Virus record (IMG/VR): IMGVR_UViG_2695420821_000006
Length of the DNA stretch: 7,082 nt
Reading direction: 5' to 3' (one strand)
Source of the DNA: a virus
Taxonomy: Duplodnaviria > Heunggongvirae > Uroviricota > Caudoviricetes
In this document: one piece after another, positions 38-7,082 of the stretch
Numbering within the stretch: position 1 is the first letter of the stretch
How the letters are laid out: each line of letters opens with the position of its first letter
Notes under the pieces: generated by a model
Databases searched by the model: none
Seen by the model: only the letters and a program-made list of their open reading frames with translations
Told to the model about the DNA's origin: nothing
Program-made: the position numbers and the translations under genes

Positions 38-1576
38 TTATTCAGTCGGCAGTGCTACGCGCCAGGGGAGCAGTTCGCCGACCCGGTTTATCGGCCAGTC
101 GGCTATGACGTCAAGGACATAGCGGAGGTAGCTTTCTGGCTCCACTCCGTTCAGTTTGCACGTCCCGATCAGGCTGTACAGCAGCGCTCCCCGCTCTCCT
201 CCATGATCCGAACCGAAGAACAGGTAGTTTTTGCGGCCCAGACTGACCATCCGCAACGCATTTTCAGCGATGTTATTGTCCGCCTCAGCCCAGCCATCAT
301 CTGCATAGTACGTCAGCGCCGGCCACTGGTTCAGGGCGTATGCGAACGCTTTCGCCAGTTCTGAGTGTCGCGACAGGGTTTTCATCTTTTCACGCAGCCA
401 GCTTTCCAGGGATTTCAGCAGCGGTTTCGTTTTCAACTGACGTTCGGCAAGGCGCTGCTCCGCCGTCATTCCCCTTATCTCTGCCTCGATGGCGTACAGT
501 TCGCCGATCCGTTTCAGCGCTTCCTCCGTCAGGGCTGACGGGGTGCGAACGTGCACATCGTGGATTTTACGGCGGGCGTGAGCCCAACAGGCGGCTTCCG
601 TTATCCGGCCATCCCGGTACAGCTCGTTGAACCCGGCGTATGCATCCGCCTGCAGTACACCACTGAACCCCGCAAGATGGGTCTGCGGATGGATGCCTTT
701 TCTGTCCGGGCTGTAAGCGAACCACACCGCCGGCGCCAGCGTTGACCCGGCGTTACGGTCGTCACGAACGTAGGTCCATAACCGCCCGGTCTTCGTTTTC
801 TTATTGCCTGGCAACAGCACCGGGACAGGCGTGTCATCAGCATGGAGCTTACCGTCAGTCAGCACATAGTCCTGAAGCGCTTCTTCCAGCGGTGACAGTA
901 GCCGGCAGCATGCATCCACCCAGCCCGACAGCAGTGAACGACTCAGCTCCACGCCCTGGCGGCCGTACATTTCAGACTGGCGGTACAGCGGGGTGTGCTC
1001 TGCATACTTTGAGATCAGCACGCGGGCCAGCAGCCCCGGTCCTGCGATACCCCGCTCGATGGGCCGTGAAGGCGCGGGGGCCTGCACGATGGCATCGCAC
1101 TGAGTACAGGCATGCTTTTCACGTACAGTCCGGATAACCCGGAAGGCGCTGCGCATCAGCTCCAGCTGTTCGGCGGCATCCTCACCCAGATAGCTCAGCG
1201 AGCCTCCACATTCCGGGCAGCATGACGCTGCCGGCAGCAGCCGTTTTTCATCGCGGGGGAGTGATTCGGGGAACGGTTTGCGGGTGCGGGTTTGACGCAG
1301 CGGGCGCTGCACGGCCGGGTCGTCAACCCGACCGGTAAGGGTATCACTTTCTTTCTGAAGTGCCTTCAGGTCAGCTTCCATCTGTGCGATACGACGGGAG
1401 ACTTTTTCCGAGCGGCTGCCGAAGTTCATCCGGCGCAGCTTATCCAGCTGTGCCTGCAGATGGTCTATTTCGCGTTCACGCTCGTTCAGCTTTTCCTGCA
1501 GGGCACGGTTCAGCGCCTCCTGTTCGGCAAGGAGACGTTTCAGTGCATTGATATCGTCAGGAAGTGAGCTGCTCAT
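38..1576 (-). CDS. tnpC: IS66-family transposase (TnpC / Orf3), 512 aa
   Basis: 512-aa ORF with an N-terminal coiled-coil-like region ([19 protein letters not shown]...), a CxxC...CxxC zinc-finger-like pair (CCPECGG...CTQCD) and a long catalytic core; matches my recollection of IS66 TnpC architecture. It is the last of three co-oriented IS ORFs. Confidence 0.88.
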
Positions 1577-1624
1577 ACCGGGTATATTACCAGGCTCATT
1601 CAGCGTCGACCAGGATAAAGAGGC

Positions 1625-1972
1625 TTACAACATAGTCAGGGACGTAAGCAGTCTTTTAGGCTGCCGCCAGTCGATACCTTCCAGCAGCATCGCCAGCTGT
1701 GCCGGTGTGAGGAACACTTTGCCATCCCGGGCTGACGGCCAGGCGAAGCGGCCGCGCTCCAGCCGTTTGGTCAGCAGACACAGTCCATCGCCGGTAGACC
1801 AGAGGAGCTTTACCTGACTGCCATTACGCCCACGGAAGATAAAAACGTGACCTGACATCGGATCGTCTTTCAGCGTCGTCTGCACCTTTGCCGCCAGGCC
1901 GTTGAAGCCGTTTCTCATATCGGTGATGCCAGCGACCAGCCAGATCTTTGTCCCTGATGGTAATGGGATCAA
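1625..1972 (-). CDS. tnpB: IS66 Orf2 (TnpB-type accessory protein), 115 aa
   Basis: Translation MIPLPSGTKIWLVAGITDMRNGFNGLAAKVQ... has the characteristic IS66 Orf2 N-terminus; its start overlaps the tnpA stop by 4 bp. Confidence 0.85.
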   Translation of the reverse strand: MIPLPSGTKIWLVAGITDMRNGFNGLAAKVQTTLKDDPMSGHVFIFRGRNGSQVKLLWSTGDGLCLLTKRLERGRFAWPSARDGKVFLTPAQLAMLLEGIDWRQPKRLLTSLTML

Positions 1973-2373
1973 CGTTTGAGCTCCCGTATCAGCAGGTTCA
2001 GGATATTTTCGCTGATGGCACCATTCAGACGGAGTGATCCGTGCCGGAACGTCACTTCACAGCTGATATTGAGTGATTCAGGTGTCGCAGCAGCTACAGG
2101 TTGTGACCGGGGGGAGGTTGTAGGGACAACATCTTCGGCATCAAGTGTTATCGGGAGCAGCTCAGGCACGTTGTTTTCTGTTGTTGAAGGAGGACGTAGT
2201 TTTCCTTCGCGCCAGTACTGGCGCCACTTGAACAGCAAATTATCGTTGATCCCATGCTCACGAGCGAGTTGCGCTACGGAGATCTCTGGTCGATGCGAGA
2301 GTTCAACCATTTTGATTTTGAACTCAACGGGATAATTAGGGCTTTTTTTACGCACTGCGGTTAATGATTTCAT
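1969..2373 (-). CDS. tnpA: IS66 Orf1 (TnpA, helix-turn-helix transposase accessory protein), 134 aa
   Basis: N-terminal HTH-like region (EFKIKMVELSHRPEISVAQLAREHGINDNLLFKWRQ) typical of IS3/IS66 orfA proteins; first ORF inside the tnpA-proximal IR. Confidence 0.82.
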   Translation of the reverse strand: MKSLTAVRKKSPNYPVEFKIKMVELSHRPEISVAQLAREHGINDNLLFKWRQYWREGKLRPPSTTENNVPELLPITLDAEDVVPTTSPRSQPVAAATPESLNISCEVTFRHGSLRLNGAISENILNLLIRELKR

Positions 2374-2428
2374 GGATAGCGTCCACCATATTTGGTGTCC
2401 ACTATTCTCTCAGGAATTTCAGGATCTG

Positions 2429-2454
2429 CCAGACGGTGCTGAGACGACGCTTAC
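2429..2454. repeat. IS66 terminal inverted repeat (tnpA-proximal end)
   Basis: Reverse complement of 2429-2454 reads GTAAGCGTCGTCTCAGCACCGTCTGG, matching the pos 1-26 terminus in the first 8 nt and in later blocks. Confidence 0.55.
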
Positions 2455-2470
2455 AAATGGCGGTAGTGAA

Positions 2471-2653
2471 ATGCGAAAATTCAAAATAATTATTGAAACG
2501 GGAATAGCTGGTGGAGATTTTGAGGATGTATTCGAAGTAGATGATGACGCAACACCTGATGAAATTCATGACGAAGCAAAAGAAATTTTCTTTAACTACT
2601 GCAATTACTCATACCACGAAATAAAAGACGAAGAGGAAGGACAAAATGGCTGA
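2471..2653 (+). CDS. Small strongly acidic hypothetical protein (60 aa); first gene of the coupled operon
   Basis: ATG at 2471 is the first in-frame start outside the IS; the longer ORF-track call (2372..2653) begins inside the IS and is taken as read-through artefact. About 18 of 60 residues are D/E against 5 K/R. The stop overlaps the next start (ATGGCTGA). The RBS is weak (GGTAG). Confidence 0.5.
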   Translation: MRKFKIIIETGIAGGDFEDVFEVDDDATPDEIHDEAKEIFFNYCNYSYHEIKDEEEGQNG

Positions 2654-2822
2654 TTTTGGTTCAACTAAATATAACGCCAGTTTTGAAGAATGGCATGAAC
2701 TGTTAATGGATTATGCAGAGTTACGCGGTGGAAGTGCCGCTGATGCTGAAGCATGGCGTGATGATTATGAAGCAGGGAAAACTCCGGTCGAAGCATATTG
2801 TGATGAGTGGGGCGATGAATGA
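2646..2822 (+). CDS. Small strongly acidic hypothetical protein (58 aa)
   Basis: ORF MADFGSTKYNASFEEWHELLMDYAELRGGSAADAEAWRDDYEAGKTPVEAYCDEWGDE, below the ORF-track size cutoff. About 16 of 58 residues are D/E against 4 K/R. Its start overlaps the upstream stop and its stop overlaps the next start (ATGA at 2819-2822). Confidence 0.5.
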   Translation: MADFGSTKYNASFEEWHELLMDYAELRGGSAADAEAWRDDYEAGKTPVEAYCDEWGDE

Positions 2823-3178
2823 GCGAGATTAATTATCAGGAAGGGCATGAAAAGGCAGGGCAGGCAAAACCAGTGGCATGGCGATATCGCTACGTGAAAA
2901 AAGGCGTTACAGACTTTCAGGGGAAGCAGTGGGCTGGTGACTGGAAATATGTCCAGACAAAAGAAGATTGTAACGACAGACCGAACTATGAAATTCAGGC
3001 GTTATTCACGGCCCCGCCAGCCCCGGTGACATCAGAAGGACTAGTTAAAGCCGTGCGCTTTTATGAACAGGTAAAGCGTGAGAATCCACCCGTCGAAACA
3101 GGTGCATGGAAAGATGCTGTTGACTGGGTACTCAAAGAGGCTTGTCAGGTTGTAAACATTCGCATCAAAGGAGAATGA
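2819..3178 (+). CDS. Hypothetical protein, 119 aa (not recognised)
   Basis: Uninterrupted ORF with ATGA overlap to the upstream gene; the next gene starts 2 nt after its stop. W/Y-rich, no family recognised. Confidence 0.6.
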   Translation: MSEINYQEGHEKAGQAKPVAWRYRYVKKGVTDFQGKQWAGDWKYVQTKEDCNDRPNYEIQALFTAPPAPVTSEGLVKAVRFYEQVKRENPPVETGAWKDAVDWVLKEACQVVNIRIKGE

Positions 3179-3179
3179 G

Positions 3180-3695
3180 ATGGCGTTAACACACCGCGAA
3201 CTCTGTCAGATTGCCTACAGGTTCCTTAAGCGCAACGGGTTCAAGGTTTGCTTTCATGACCGCTTTGTTGCTGTAACCAGTACTGGAGAACAACCAGATG
3301 CTATGGGATTCAGAAATTCAGCATCATGCCTGATAGAGGCGAAGTGTTCTCGTGCTGACTTGTTGGCAGATAGAAAAAAGCGTTTCCGTAAAAATCCCTC
3401 TCTTGGCATGGGGGACTGGCGATTCTTTATTAGTGAGCCGGGAATTATTTCAATTGAGGATTTACCACCTGGCTGGGGATTACTTCACGTTGTTAACGGA
3501 AGAGTACGGAAAGTATATGGGTGGCCCAAGGGTAATTGCTGTTGGGGTAATCCTGACGATAAGCCATTTACCGGAAATAAGCAGGTTGAATGCGATTACA
3601 TGTTATCTGCATTAAGGCGCATGGAGTTGAGAGGGCACCTTAATGAAATATATGACGGTGTAATTGTTAATAAGAAAGAAGGAAACGCGGCATGA
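3180..3695 (+). CDS. Putative PD-(D/E)xK-fold nuclease-like protein (possibly MmcB-like), 171 aa
   Basis: Contains QPDAMGF followed about 12 residues later by LIEAKCSRADLLAD, i.e. a D ... E-x-K arrangement resembling the restriction-endonuclease-like catalytic motif. Family assignment is motif-based only. Confidence 0.6.
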   Translation: MALTHRELCQIAYRFLKRNGFKVCFHDRFVAVTSTGEQPDAMGFRNSASCLIEAKCSRADLLADRKKRFRKNPSLGMGDWRFFISEPGIISIEDLPPGWGLLHVVNGRVRKVYGWPKGNCCWGNPDDKPFTGNKQVECDYMLSALRRMELRGHLNEIYDGVIVNKKEGNAA

Positions 3696-4261
3696 TCACT
3701 ATTACCAAAGAGCGACTACTGACAATCAAGCAGTGGCGCGAAACATACGGACCTGGTAGCAACGTTGTGCTTCCAGCAGAAGAAGCGGAAGAGCTGGCAC
3801 GGATTGCACTGGCATCACTGGCAGCAGTATCGGATGAACGAGCAGCCTATGAATTATTTATGGAGAAGCGTTTCGGAGAATCTGTAGATCGCCGCAGAGC
3901 AAAAAATGGCGATAGAGAATACATGGCATGGGATATGGCGCTTGGCTGGATTATCTGGTGTCACCGCGCCGCCATGCTTCAGGCTGGAAACTTTCGGGAA
4001 CATAAGGGTTCGTCAACCAATAATTTTCGGGAAATCTCGGAAACGTCAACCAACCATCCGGTAACTCCGGATGGTTGGATAAGCTGTAGTGAGCGAATGC
4101 CGGATGACGGGCAGTGGTGCGTAGTGAACACAGAATACGGGTATTACGTGCAATGCTGGTCTGAAGGTCAAGGATGGCTTGGTGATGATATCAGCATCCC
4201 TGAATGCGATGTAATCAATCGGATGCTTCTACCTGAACCGCCGCAGAAGGTGCGCCAATGA
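3692..4261 (+). CDS. Phage-type protein with C-terminal DUF551-like domain, 189 aa
   Basis: C-terminus PDGWISCSERMPDDGQWCVVN...YYVQCW fits the W-I-S-x-x-(D/E)-R-(L/M)-P signature I associate with DUF551, which is common in lambdoid nin/early-region proteins. ATGA overlap with the upstream gene. The linker between domains contains a DNA-level repeat. Confidence 0.7.
   Translation: MITITKERLLTIKQWRETYGPGSNVVLPAEEAEELARIALASLAAVSDERAAYELFMEKRFGESVDRRRAKNGDREYMAWDMALGWIIWCHRAAMLQAGNFREHKGSSTNNFREISETSTNHPVTPDGWISCSERMPDDGQWCVVNTEYGYYVQCWSEGQGWLGDDISIPECDVINRMLLPEPPQKVRQ
3989..4053. repeat. Two imperfect ~32-bp direct repeats inside the DUF551 gene linker
   Basis: 3989-4020 AACTTTCGGGAACATAAGGGTTCGTCAACCAA and 4022-4053 AATTTTCGGGAAATCTCGGAAACGTCAACCAA; about 23 of 32 positions identical, with conserved TTCGGGAA and CGTCAACCAA ends. 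Encodes NFREHKGSSTN / NFREISETSTN. Confidence 0.7.
4050..4078. repeat. Perfect 12-bp inverted repeat with 5-bp spacer inside the DUF551 gene
   Basis: CCAACCATCCGG-TAACT-CCGGATGGTTGG; the arms are exact reverse complements. Located directly 3' of the direct repeats. Confidence 0.8.
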
Positions 4262-4341
4262 ACTGGCCTGAAGCATTTGCAATTACAGGCGTTGCTATGG
4301 CTATCGCTTTTTTAGTATATGTTATTTGTCGGTGGGGGTAA
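4258..4341 (+). CDS. Putative small hydrophobic peptide (27 aa)
   Basis: MNWPEAFAITGVAMAIAFLVYVICRWG; its start overlaps the stop of the DUF551 gene (ATGA), suggesting translational coupling. One predicted transmembrane helix. Too short for confident calling. Confidence 0.4.
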   Translation: MNWPEAFAITGVAMAIAFLVYVICRWG

Positions 4342-4376
4342 AAACGTTCGCCGGGATTAACACCAAAGGAGGGAAT

Positions 4377-4475
4377 ATGTCGGATGATATTTCACTGGCA
4401 ATGGAAGGCGCGCTGGCCGTTATTTCTGTTGTGGGCGTTTACTGCCTGGTTGTGTTTTTGATGGATCGGATGTGA
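4377..4475 (+). CDS. Putative small hydrophobic peptide (32 aa)
   Basis: MSDDISLAMEGALAVISVVGVYCLVVFLMDRM; preceded by a strong RBS AAGGAGGG (4366-4373) 4 nt before the ATG. One predicted transmembrane helix. Confidence 0.45.
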   Translation: MSDDISLAMEGALAVISVVGVYCLVVFLMDRM

Positions 4476-4522
4476 AACTGAATTCATTGCGATATGGGCA
4501 TTCCCATATCGGGTAAAACGGT

Positions 4523-4550
4523 TTGCGGTAAAGCGAGAGTTAAGTAGAAT
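4523..4550 (+). promoter_or_regulatory. Putative sigma70 promoter of the hok/mok mRNA
   Basis: TTGCGG (4523-4528), 16-nt spacer, TAGAAT (4545-4550); predicted start near 4557-4560, where the sequence (GGGTGCTTGAGGCTGTCTGCCTC...) resembles the 5' end of plasmid R1 hok mRNA as I recall it. Confidence 0.45.
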
Positions 4551-4556
4551 TGCTGC

Positions 4557-4568
4557 GGGTGCTTGAGG
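4557..4568 (+). promoter_or_regulatory. hok mRNA 5' element (tac-like) complementary to the 3' fbi-like element
   Basis: GGGTGCTTGAGG is complementary, with one bulge, to CCTCAACGCACCC at 4931-4943. It is followed by a 9-bp stem CTGTCTGCC / GGCAGACAG (4570-4578 with 4596-4604). Confidence 0.45.
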
Positions 4569-4609
4569 CTGTCTGCCTCGGGCATGCCGACGTAAGGCAG
4601 ACAGAGAAA

Positions 4610-4676
4610 AGCCCCAGTTAACATTATGCGTCTTGCAGGACGCTTAACATTAATCTGAGGCCATATCTATGACTTG
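4610..4676 (-). ncRNA. sok: Predicted Sok-like antisense RNA (approximate boundaries)
   Basis: A minus-strand promoter (features 4684-4712) would start transcription near 4676, giving an antisense RNA across the mok SD and start codon as in hok/sok systems. The 3' end is not defined; only a weak hairpin (GCGTC…GACGC) and a short T-run are visible. Confidence 0.4.
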
Positions 4677-4881
4677 CACACTTAGATTAGCCTCTTACGC
4701 GCCGAAAGGCAAGGAGCAGCAGGCTATGAAGCAGCAAAAGGCGATGCTAATCGCCCTGATCGTCATCTGTATTACCGTCGTTGTAACGGTACTGGTAACG
4801 AGGAAAGACCTCTGCGAGGTACGAATCCGAACCGGCCAGACGGAGGTCGCTGTCTTCACAGCTTACGAATCTGAGAAGTAA
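4669..4881 (+). CDS. mok: mok-type reading frame (70 codons) that includes the hok frame and shares its stop
   Basis: ATG at 4669 with SD GAGG (4657-4660); in frame with hok. The arrangement is as I recall for chromosomal mokC/hokC. This is the target region for the antisense RNA. Confidence 0.5.
   Translation: MTCTLRLASYAPKGKEQQAMKQQKAMLIALIVICITVVVTVLVTRKDLCEVRIRTGQTEVAVFTAYESEK
4684..4712 (-). promoter_or_regulatory. Putative sok promoter
   Basis: On the minus strand: TTGCCT (complement of 4707-4712), 17-nt spacer, TAATCT (complement of 4684-4689); it lies inside the start of the mok frame, as expected for sok. Confidence 0.4.
4726..4881 (+). CDS. hok: Hok/Gef-family type I toxin (small membrane killer protein), 51 aa
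   Basis: MKQQKAMLIALIVICITVVVTVLVTRKDLCEVRIRTGQTEVAVFTAYESEK aligns by eye with Hok (…[27 protein letters not shown]): one transmembrane helix followed by the conserved TRK-LCE-R…EVA-F-AYES-K tail. RBS AAGGAG at 4711-4716. Confidence 0.88.
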   Translation: MKQQKAMLIALIVICITVVVTVLVTRKDLCEVRIRTGQTEVAVFTAYESEK

Positions 4882-4930
4882 GAGACCCGGCGAGGGAGAA
4901 ATCCCTCGCCACCTCTGATGTGTCAGGCAT

Positions 4931-4943
4931 CCTCAACGCACCC
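4931..4943 (+). promoter_or_regulatory. fbi-like 3' element of hok mRNA
   Basis: CCTCAACGCACCC is complementary to the mRNA 5' end (4557-4568). It lies between a perfect 9-bp hairpin (GGCGAGGGA-GAAA-TCCCTCGCC, 4889-4910) and the terminator. Confidence 0.45.
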
Positions 4944-4951
4944 GCACTTAA

Positions 4952-4976
4952 CCCGCTTCTGCGGGTTTTGTTTTTT
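4952..4976 (+). terminator. Rho-independent terminator of the hok mRNA
   Basis: CCCGC-TTCT-GCGGG stem-loop (4952-4965) followed by TTTTGTTTTTT (4966-4976). Confidence 0.7.
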
Positions 4977-4997
4977 CTTGACATTCTGGTTTACAAT
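4968..4997 (+). promoter_or_regulatory. Possible weak promoter for the downstream ORF
   Basis: TTGTTT (4968-4973), 18-nt spacer, TACAAT (4992-4997). A perfect TTGACA at 4978-4983 is too close to that -10 element to be its -35. Speculative. Confidence 0.25.
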
Positions 4998-5047
4998 TCG
5001 CACGCCAGCCTGAACAACTGGCACCTGCTGTGTCACCGGAGAACCCG

Positions 5048-5239
5048 ATGGCGCAACGTATAAAATCCCACAATTCTGAAGCCGTCCCGGCCATTAAGCG
5101 GGGGCGGCATTCGCACGTATTTAAAACCGACTGGTACCAGCATCCCCCATGCACTGAAGAACAGGCCGAATGGCTGATTCAGTGTTACCGCAGGCGCGGA
5201 TATTGGTGTGTCACGTTAACCGGAAAAAGGAAAGTTTGA
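5048..5239 (+). CDS. Hypothetical 63-aa ORF, possibly the 5' part of a frameshifted gene continuing into the TerB-like frame
   Basis: ATG at 5048 with RBS GGAGA (5038-5042); the ORF track starts it at an upstream GTG (5030). It ends at TGA 5237-5239, directly after an A5 run (5224-5228) where a +1 shift would enter the TerB-like frame. Confidence 0.3.
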   Translation: MAQRIKSHNSEAVPAIKRGRHSHVFKTDWYQHPPCTEEQAEWLIQCYRRRGYWCVTLTGKRKV

Positions 5240-5612
5240 GAAACGCGATCTGGCACAGGCGGTGATTAACGCCGCATACCTGGTGGCCTGTGCAGATGGT
5301 GAATGTGAGGCTTCCTAGAAAGCGAAGATCGAACAGGTACTGCGTAATCAGCCTGCGCTGTACGCGTTTACGTCAGAAATTAATGCGATTAGCGCAACCA
5401 TTATCGGTCAGCTGGATACGAACTTTAAAACTGGTCGTCGTGCGGCGTTACGTGAGATCGAGGATGTGAAACACGATACGCGTGAAGCGGAAGATGTGCT
5501 GGATGTGGCGGTGGCCATTGCGGAGGCAGACGGCGAAATTGAGCCGGAAGAGCGCAAGGTGCTGGAAGAGATTGCCGGTGTTCTGGGTCTTCGTCTGGAG
5601 AATTACCTGTGA
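5220..5612 (+). pseudogene. TerB-family (tellurite-resistance TerB-like domain) gene, apparently disrupted
   Basis: The frame reads …AQAVINAAYLVACADGECEAS*KAKIEQVL…VAIAEADGEIEPEERKVLEEIAGVLGLRLENYL*, i.e. two ADG-x5-E-x-(K/R) repeats typical of TerB-like domains. There is an in-frame TAG at 5316-5318 (probably from GAG), a TAA at 5217-5219 just upstream, and no ATG/GTG start before the domain. Confidence 0.55.
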
Positions 5613-5776
5613 CGGTAAAACTGCGCCTGACTGTGGCTGCACTCCTGCTGTTTCTGGTGGTGATGGTGGATTTCACCAGCAGAATCATGTCGGTGCTGGC
5701 GGATGGGGTGCTGGTCTGCGGCATTATGGTATTGCTGTGGCCGGTGATAAAAAGAAACAGCCTGCATAATGCTTGA
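5609..5776 (+). CDS. Putative small membrane protein (about 55 aa, GTG start) coupled to the TerB-like frame
   Basis: GTG at 5609 overlaps the TerB-frame stop (GTGA). Translation (M)TVKLRLTVAALLLFLVVMVDFTSRIMSVLADGVLVCGIMVLLWPVIKRNSLHNA is hydrophobic with two potential helices. Followed by a T-rich stretch (5777-5790). An alternative ATG start is at 5663. Confidence 0.3.
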   Translation: MTVKLRLTVAALLLFLVVMVDFTSRIMSVLADGVLVCGIMVLLWPVIKRNSLHNA

Positions 5777-6090
5777 TTTTTTTGTTTGCTGTTTATTAAA
5801 AACACTTCTGCATGGTGAATCCCCCTGTGCGGTGGGGCAATCAGCAAGAAGGAATATGGGGTAATCGCGGATTCAGGTGCTGATACTGAATTCACCGGGA
5901 GGCACCCGGCACCATGCTTTGCCACAAAAGTGTTATTTCTGTTTTTCTCAAACTATCATCGTTATCCCTTTATTTTCGGCTGCGCATGGCGCGGCCTTTT
6001 TTTTACGACCAGCCACTGGCAGATGGTCATCCTGTGATTTGATTCCGCTTCCGGCTTTTTAACTCTGTTCCTCTACACGGGAGAAATTCG

Positions 6091-7082
6091 ATGTCGATTA
6101 AACATTATGATGTTGTCAGGGCGGCGTCGCCGTCAGACCTTGCGGAAAAGCTGACACACAAACTGAAAGAGGGCTGGCAGCCATACGGCGGACCGGTTGC
6201 CATTACGCCGTACACACTGATGCAGGCGGTGGCTATTGAAGGAGAGCCACAGGTCGGCCCTTCATCTGAGCCGGATTGGTACTACGTCATCGTACTGGCC
6301 GGGCAGTCCAATGCCATGGCTTACGGTGAAGGGCTTCCGCTGCCGGATTCATACGATGCTCCGGATCCGCGCATTAAACAGCTGGCGCGCCGCAGTACAG
6401 TGACGCCGGGCGGGGCTGCCTGCAGATATAACGATATTATTCCGGCTGACCACTGTCTGCATGATGTGCAGGATATGAGTACGCTGAATCATCCGAGGGC
6501 TGACCTGAGCAAAGGGCAGTACGGCTGTGTCGGCCAGGGTTTACATATTGCCAAAAAACTGCTCCCGTATATCCCGAATAACGCGGGGATCCTGCTGGTA
6601 CCATGCTGTCGTGGTGGTTCGGCATTTACCCAGGGCGCGGAGGGGACATTCAGCGAGTCCACGGGGGCCAGTCAGGATTCGGCACGCTGGGGGGTGGGCA
6701 AGCCGTTATATCAGGATCTGATTTCCCGCACAAAAGCGGCATTGCAGAAAAATCCCAAAAACGTTCTGCTGGCCGTCTGCTGGATGCAGGGTGAGTTTGA
6801 CATGAGCGCCGCCACCCACGCACAGCAACCTGCGCTGTTTACAGCCATGCTGACACAGTTTCGTGCTGACCTCTCCGTGTTTAACGCGCAGTGCCATGGT
6901 GGCAGCGCTGCAGATGTGCCGTGGGTTTGTGGTGACACGACGTATTACTGGAAAAATACATACGCTACCCAATACGACACCGTGTACGGCGGGTATAAAA
7001 ACAGGGAGAGTGAGGGCGTTTATTTTGTGCCCTTCATGACAGACGGTAACGGCGTCAATACCGCCACTAACGCGCCGGCAGA
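6091..7082 (+). CDS. nanS: Prophage-type NanS-p-like 9-O-acetyl-sialate esterase (DUF1737-like N-terminal domain + SASA/GDSL-like esterase domain); 3' end truncated by the window
   Basis: RBS GGGAGA 8 nt before the ATG at 6091. N-terminus MSIKHYDVVRAASPSDLAEKLTHKLKEGWQPYGGPV… resembles the DUF1737 domain, followed by YYVIVLAGQSNAMAYGEG with the GQSN catalytic-serine motif of sialate O-acetylesterases. Open frame runs to the window end (330 codons, no stop). Confidence 0.78.
   Translation, partial: MSIKHYDVVRAASPSDLAEKLTHKLKEGWQPYGGPVAITPYTLMQAVAIEGEPQVGPSSEPDWYYVIVLAGQSNAMAYGEGLPLPDSYDAPDPRIKQLARRSTVTPGGAACRYNDIIPADHCLHDVQDMSTLNHPRADLSKGQYGCVGQGLHIAKKLLPYIPNNAGILLVPCCRGGSAFTQGAEGTFSESTGASQDSARWGVGKPLYQDLISRTKAALQKNPKNVLLAVCWMQGEFDMSAATHAQQPALFTAMLTQFRADLSVFNAQCHGGSAADVPWVCGDTTYYWKNTYATQYDTVYGGYKNRESEGVYFVPFMTDGNGVNTATNAPA

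Follow-up and report, generated by a model that had tools for sequence, protein, structure and literature searches.

The TerB-like frame is a tciA pseudogene in prophage debris

Positions 5048–5612 of the window, as we call the whole 7,082-nt stretch of DNA that was analyzed, are very probably (at roughly 93%) non-functional debris in a decaying lambdoid prophage, where three unrelated fragments would have been brought together by two illegitimate deletions and further damaged by one nonsense mutation. The 3′ part represents a gene of the phage TciA/TerB family that has become a pseudogene and, judging from the sequence, no TciA protein could be made from the window DNA. The original prediction saw here a TerB-domain gene inactivated by an in-frame amber codon and probably by a frameshift at a run of five A residues (A5) or, less likely, a programmed frameshift and read-through arrangement. 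Instead, two deletions and one point mutation in a cryptic prophage would have produced this tempting combination of frameshift plus amber codon, the biological importance of which is small. The amber allele is already known, since RefSeq annotates it as 'TerB family protein, internal stop', and the sole new element is a window-specific junction (junction 2 below), which is ordinary prophage erosion. The features of the region are listed here, with L numbers denoting the loci and contigs that were compared with the window.

5048–5202, + strand: 5′ fragment of a rem-like gene, 51 codons plus 2 nt of a 90-aa gene (identical to L003 5750–5904, with divergence after 5202)
5201–5202, no strand: junction 2, an illegitimate join with 'TA' microhomology (alignment; BLAST against L002)
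5203–5233, + strand: late-operon leader and Shine–Dalgarno region, about 30 nt, with the A5 run and an in-frame TAA at 5217–5219 (same sequence upstream of intact tciA elsewhere)
5231–5233, no strand: junction 1, an older deletion with 'AAA' microhomology, which joins the leader to tciA codon 18 (comparison with L016 and other prophages)
About 5231–5612, + strand: remnant of tciA (TerB family), codons 18–143, no start codon, Glu46 replaced by amber (Pfam TerB; alignments to intact 143-aa alleles; RefSeq 'internal stop')
5316–5318, + strand: amber codon, GAG to TAG at Glu46 (comparison with intact alleles)
5609–5776, + strand: tciB (DUF3927, 55 aa), intact, with a GTG start that overlaps the tciA stop (Pfam PF13064, E = 1.7e-16)

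The sequence facts behind the original prediction, namely a 63-aa ORF, the A5 run, the TAG, the missing start codon, and the ADG repeats, all hold where they had been placed. With codon starts at positions divisible by 3, the TerB frame extends from just after the TAA at 5217–5219 to a TGA at 5610–5612, has no ATG, GTG, or TTG ahead of a GTG at 5262, and is interrupted by the in-frame TAG at 5316–5318. Its translation contains two ADG…E…K units, CADGECEAS*KAKIEQ and EADGEIEPEERKVLEE. When the TAG is read as Glu, the frame matches the Pfam TerB profile PF05099 over most of the domain (profile positions 2–109 of 118), with E = 5e-12 and 46.6 bits for a cut-off of 24.4, which shows that it stems from a genuine coding sequence rather than being an ORF by chance.

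We next compared the remnant with intact members of the family. Intact alleles in lambdoid prophages, annotated as 'tellurite resistance TerB family protein', encode 143 residues (for example, L004 and L006, both at 1451–1882, with the N terminus MFGIFKKKTRRAATEIKKFEKRD), and the window remnant is 92–94% identical to them in protein. These alleles are in turn 42–51% identical, over the full length, to TciA of phage P1, which belongs to a tciA-tciB-tciC module and also falls within PF05099. A tblastn search of phage genomes found full-length homologues in 130 phage records; homologues are known from Erwinia, Pseudomonas, Vibrio, and Klebsiella phages, and the full-length ones are single 143-aa ORFs. 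While real TciA proteins begin with MFGIFKKK and the window remnant shares the two ADG motifs with the family, no complete ORF of ~143 aa with this beginning is found in the window: the ribosome-binding site, the ATG, and codons 1–17 are missing, the TAA at 5217–5219 is in frame, and codon 46 is a TAG. In intact alleles, the codon aligned to the TAG is GAG (Glu46), in the context TCC-GAG or TCA-GAG, and this Glu, which follows the first ADG motif, is kept in all five aligned homologues, including P1 TciA and the Erwinia-phage and Pseudomonas-phage proteins. The Glu that had been expected at this place from the repeat pattern is therefore confirmed.

Alignment to intact homologues, which had been proposed as the way to locate the lesions, did so and bore out the idea of a TerB gene in decay that has suffered more than one lesion. 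Relative to intact orthologues, the window gene carries two disabling changes, the nonsense codon and a 5′ truncation, and the NCBI pipeline PGAP flags the allele as a pseudogene. A GTG at 5466, which opens a 48-aa ORF over the second ADG unit, was considered as the start of an expressed remnant and rejected because the sole Shine–Dalgarno-like sequence, GAGG, is only 2 nt from it.

The gene that follows fits the same family. A DUF3927 gene, tciB, comes directly after tciA in the window (5609–5776), as it does in P1 and in Erwinia phage ChrisDB, although the overlap of the tciA stop with the tciB start (GTGA) is seen in the window and not in P1 or the Erwinia phage. The tciB gene also possesses a Shine–Dalgarno sequence of its own, a GGAG 8 nt ahead of the GTG start. 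In E. coli genomes, the RefSeq pseudogene is likewise followed by an intact DUF3927 gene and then by a SASA-family esterase. The loss of tciA would be tolerable, since tciA, tciB, and tciC of P1 were all scored as non-essential in a CRISPRi screen (PMC10695390).

The second lesion of tciA is a deletion of its start

The second lesion had been placed at GGAAAAAGG (5222–5230), as a frameshift in the A5 run at 5224–5228. A one-base deletion in A5 would mechanically fuse both frames, and A4 copies (L130 and L161) show such a fusion. However, the A5 run belongs to the leader of another gene and is therefore no lesion of tciA. In a scan of IMG/VR, the 25-mer TTGGTGTGTCACGTTAACCGGAAAA runs on in most prophages as ...GGGAAAAAGACATGCTGAAACAG, and its usual role is to provide the leader and Shine–Dalgarno sequence for a small late gene downstream of Q (MLKQQDMTETA...). 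Where a contig has an intact tciA as well (L016, L189, L067, and L013), this leader lies 1885–2498 nt upstream of the tciA ATG, with a methyltransferase ORF in between, and tRNA genes are found just upstream of tciA in comparable loci (L004, L007, and L008). The A4/A5 length polymorphism is present also at the leaders of intact-tciA loci, and the A5 version occurs in dozens of independent IMG/VR contigs. We also considered 5203–5233 ("GFFDKSYWCVTLTGK(G)KFEKRD", L001-type) as a diverged TciA N terminus in which A5 would be a +1 insertion relative to A4 in L130 and L161, which was rejected because the same sequence is the other gene's leader, 1.9–2.5 kb upstream.

The true second lesion of tciA is the deletion of its start codon and codons 1–17. 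This deletion, which ends at junction 1, spans ~1.9 kb relative to L016 (roughly 1128–3050). Lost with it were the small late ORF, a DNA methyltransferase gene, tRNA genes, and, from tciA itself, the ribosome-binding site, ATG, and first 17 codons. The same TAG and the same leader-to-codon-18 junction are found in RefSeq/PGAP pseudogenes of prophages in O157:H7 and other Shiga toxin-producing E. coli (STEC) strains (NZ_CP010134.1 450511–450873; NZ_CP016755.1 3099057–3099419), and these copies are 100% (L001) or 98.8–99.5% identical to window 5201–5800. They lie about 190–240 nt downstream of an intact Q antiterminator gene, whereas the window lacks Q, rusA, and DUF968 and has the stump of the rem-like gene directly against the remnant.

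Two further observations concern other tciA loci. Many copies with a native 5′ end (L007, L008, L127, and related ones) have an A7 run, GGTAAAAAAAGCC, ~20 nt into the gene; in-frame alleles have A6 there, and the ATG of A7 copies is thus out of frame. PGAP calls the L008 tciA 'intact' by way of a TTG 4 nt downstream (MVFLVKK...), and this A7 allele is probably frameshifted rather than functional. Upstream of the intact tciA of L004, RefSeq has a 'tRNA-OTHER' (1107–1187) where other prophages have tRNA-Arg(UCG); ARAGORN makes no call there, so this tRNA gene has probably degraded.

The upstream ORF is a fusion at a second, window-specific junction

The original prediction took the upstream ORF, which runs from an ATG at 5048 to a TGA at 5237–5239 and encodes 63 aa, to be the missing N terminus of the TerB protein. 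Its alignments instead identify codons 1–51 of a separate gene for a 90-aa protein, and the ORF would be an accidental chimera of these 51 rem-like codons and 12 codons of leader sequence; it should not count as a gene in annotation. Window 4300–5202 matches prophages with the gene order hok, a 90–92-aa gene, DUF968, rusA, and Q. The upstream gene and tciA are naturally separate, with DUF968, rusA, and Q between them, an arrangement that had been named as evidence against a single broken gene; the companion idea, that the TAG might be the genuine C terminus of a shorter protein, did not stand, since homologues have Glu46 at this position. RefSeq labels the 90-aa gene 'GIY-YIG nuclease family protein' or 'hypothetical protein', and some phage records call it 'rem'. 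Searches of Pfam and NCBIfam gave only a sub-threshold Pfam hit and nothing significant for the 63-aa fragment, and no family at all for the full 90-aa protein, which leaves the GIY-YIG name unverified.

The break between the rem-like fragment and the leader is sharp. By BLAST, window 4774–5201 corresponds to L002 3–437 and window 5201 onward to L002 3001 onward, so that 2563 bp (L002 438–3000) are missing at junction 2. They comprise the 3′ remainder of the rem-like gene, DUF968, rusA, the Q antiterminator gene, and the terminator-like hairpins after Q. The left flank is that of L003 (99.2% identical overall and identical across the ORF) and the right flank that of L001 (99.9–100%, in the region after Q); since the two flanks resemble different prophages, junction 2 might stem from recombination of one prophage with another, by illegitimate exchange, rather than from a deletion inside a single prophage.

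This junction is very rare. In a megablast search of 5426 complete E. coli genomes, no genome covered both sides of 5201, with identities of up to 100% from 5201 rightwards, and no complete E. coli genome covered window 2300–5260 at more than 84%. The junction 42-mer is absent from the GTDB species representatives, and exact-protein look-ups of the 63-aa and 69-aa ORFs gave no match. Only one IMG/VR contig, L156, has junction 2; with its 100% identity to window 2360–7078 (4.7 kb), this contig possibly derives from the same genome and does not count as independent confirmation of the junction.

The amber allele is widespread and shows relaxed constraint

We determined how common the amber allele is by counting 53-mers, with every 28-nt seed word spanning the site, in 5426 complete E. 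coli genomes. We found 1006 places with the TAG allele, spread over 577 genomes, compared with 772 for the TCC-GAG allele (493 genomes) and 135 for the TCA-GAG allele (124 genomes). The TAG allele thus makes up about half of all tciA copies, with up to five per genome, and O157:H7 and other STEC strains are heavily represented among its carriers. It is a real, widespread polymorphism, and its frequency shows that it is no read error.

Next, we classified the 5′ ends of 92 TAG copies (86 IMG/VR contigs, the window, and 5 RefSeq loci). The leader-to-codon-18 deletion is found in 55 of them (also in L001, L002, and L009), a native 5′ end with A7 in place of A6 in 31, and an in-frame native 5′ end in 4. 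The amber allele sits on at least four different 5′ contexts. Together with the accompanying deletion, it could serve as a marker of recombination among STEC lambdoid prophages.

Constraint after the lesion was assessed on 171 copies (88 TAG and 83 GAG, representing 25 and 38 distinct haplotypes, respectively), by counting the variants private to each allele class. TAG-private variants were 7 nonsynonymous and 3 synonymous, in contrast to 11 and 54, respectively, for GAG-private variants (Fisher P = 0.0012), in a test that has small numbers, is haplotype-based rather than tree-based, uses clonally related genomes, and ignores recombination and shared ancestry. One of the TAG-private variants replaces the D of the first ADG motif by N, and one TAG copy has an additional 1-nt deletion. 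These ratios indicate relaxed constraint on TAG alleles rather than recoding, while intact GAG alleles are under purifying selection.

The damage extends to the neighboring gene. A nonsense or frameshift lesion in tciB was seen in 25 of 86 TAG-linked copies (29%) versus 5 of 53 GAG-linked copies (9%), and the tciAB module appears to decay as a whole. Among IMG/VR loci L090–L178, the tciB lesion is a Trp-to-stop change or a frameshift. A search for an amber-suppressor tRNA was negative: tRNA genes are absent from the window, and those adjacent to tciA in Stx-type prophages have CAU, UCG, and UCU anticodons. The private-variant ratio, the tciB lesions, the missing suppressor tRNA, and the non-essentiality in P1 all fit neutral decay of a dispensable accessory gene and not functional read-through.

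Recoding, selection for loss, and artefact

Three other explanations deserve to be weighed against decay. Under programmed recoding, a +1 shift at A-AAA-AGG would lead from the 63-aa ORF into the TerB frame, and read-through of the amber codon would then yield a Rem′-TerB fusion. The geometry of the frames does allow a +1 shift at 5224–5229 to join them, and the TAG allele is common. A Lys codon AAA ahead of AGG, a rare Arg codon, is a context prone to shifting, as in rare-codon +1 frameshifting. Yet the likeness to programmed frameshift or read-through genes (prfB, dnaX-type slippery sites) is one of superficial geometry only, with frames that meet at a homopolymer by a rare AGG and an in-frame stop beyond: in the window, the frames come from unrelated genes, the A run is another gene's leader, and there is neither a stimulatory element nor downstream constraint. 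The two-frame arrangement and its site are not conserved among homologues either, since the juxtaposition is a deletion junction that is absent from complete E. coli genomes and GTDB representatives and was seen only in the window and L156. The codons downstream of the TAG show a neutral-like 7:3 ratio of nonsynonymous to synonymous variants, there is no suppressor tRNA, and full-length homologues are single 143-aa ORFs. The programmed arrangement that had been offered as the less likely option thus finds no support, and we regard it as barely credible. A weaker formulation, in which either a Rem′-TciA fusion is made at low level (by a +1 slip at AAA-AGG, 5225–5230, and natural amber read-through) or a positively selected null amber allele has spread through STEC, is very improbable, and the comparative data are strongly against its fusion half.

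The amber codon might also be a null allele favored by selection, if loss of TciA benefits the lysogen or prophage, and might have been spread among STEC prophages by recombination. Its presence at 1006 places in 577 genomes, with up to five copies per genome, and on at least four 5′ contexts, which shows that it has moved between backgrounds, would suit such a history. However, the genome collection is dominated by clonal O157:H7/STEC strains and lambdoid prophages recombine freely, so that hitch-hiking can explain the numbers, and intact alleles are about equally common and under purifying selection. We therefore consider selection for the null allele unlikely; it differs from decay only in why the allele is frequent and leaves the identity of the window DNA unchanged. 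That frequency is not explained by decay alone; hitch-hiking in STEC lineages that have been sampled heavily, or selection for gene loss, could lie behind it. An artefact, in which the TAG, the A5 run, or the 5201/5202 junction would be a sequencing or assembly error, is less likely still. Junction 2 is found only in the window and in L156, perhaps from the same genome, an IS66 element adjoins the region, and repeated prophage modules favor misassembly. Nevertheless, hundreds of independent sequences, both complete genomes and IMG/VR contigs, have the very same TAG and A5, which disposes of the homopolymer or read error that was to be checked at both sites (the TAG 53-mer alone is in 577 complete E. 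coli genomes and A5 in dozens of IMG/VR contigs), and the junction is a clean 2-nt microhomology in otherwise unique sequence, on a contig that reaches 2.8 kb to its left and 1.9 kb to its right.

A proposed history of the region

Decay by two deletions and a nonsense mutation can be set out as a series of events. The ancestral layout, an arrangement that is found intact in other prophages, would have been hok/sok, the rem-like gene, DUF968, rusA, Q, terminators, the leader, the small late ORF, the methyltransferase gene, tRNA genes, tciA, tciB, STnc100, and nanS-p. In one event, codon 46 of tciA would have changed from GAG (Glu) to TAG. In another, a ~1.9-kb deletion across an A-rich 3-nt microhomology would have joined the leader to tciA codon 18, at the cost of the tciA start and 17 codons. 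The existence of copies with the TAG and a native 5′ end suggests that the TAG arose first or was moved by recombination. A third event, in this genome only, would have attached the leader to codon 51 of the rem-like gene by a 2-nt 'TA' join, with ~2.6 kb missing. Q and the rest of the nin region would have gone with it, and with Q lost the prophage can no longer turn on its late genes via its own antiterminator.

Neighborhood of the pseudogene

The sequence to the left of the rem-like fragment contains a complete hok/sok locus (4557–4881), with a mok-like upstream extension from 4669, and its features are as follows.

4557–4731, + strand: match to the sok antisense-RNA family of hok/sok type I toxin–antitoxin systems (Rfam RF01794, 114.8 bits, gathering score 59)
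4726–4881, + strand: CDS of a Hok/Gef-family toxin, 51 aa, MKQQKAMLIAL... (ORF list; Hok/Gef or HokD in the homologous L002 and L003)
4950–4977, + strand: terminator-like hairpin (4950–4967) and T run after hok (sequence)

Further to the left, window 2372–4261 holds small early-region ORFs (93, 58, 119, 171, and 189 aa) that match DUF7167, DUF551, and hypothetical genes from other E. coli prophages at only 91–94% identity. These prophage genes are abutted by an IS66-family element on the minus strand (38–2373), with tnpC-like (512 aa, 38–1576), tnpB-like (1625–1972), and tnpA-like (1969–2373) genes, and the end of L156 at window 2360 is consistent with an assembly break at a repeat. An IS66-family tnpA is found also in L001 (E. 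coli D1), where 1–1613 has it beside a partial ORF and a frameshifted DUF968; this tnpA has no BLAST match to the IS66 element of the window, the right part of L001 is 100% identical to the window, and the locus looks like independent erosion of a related prophage.

On the other side, an STnc100 sRNA match (Rfam RF02076, 100.8 bits, gathering score 47) occupies window 5781–5953, between tciB and nanS-p. A short way downstream of STnc100 in homologous loci, the PGAP annotation has a partial pseudogene for a 'hypothetical protein', itself dubious, which is on the other strand and overlaps the nanS-p start. The start of the SASA-family carbohydrate esterase gene (nanS-p type) itself, at 6091–7082, runs off the right end of the window and, being open-ended, is absent from the ORF list; this stretch is 99.9% identical to prophages of E. 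coli D1 and O103:H2.
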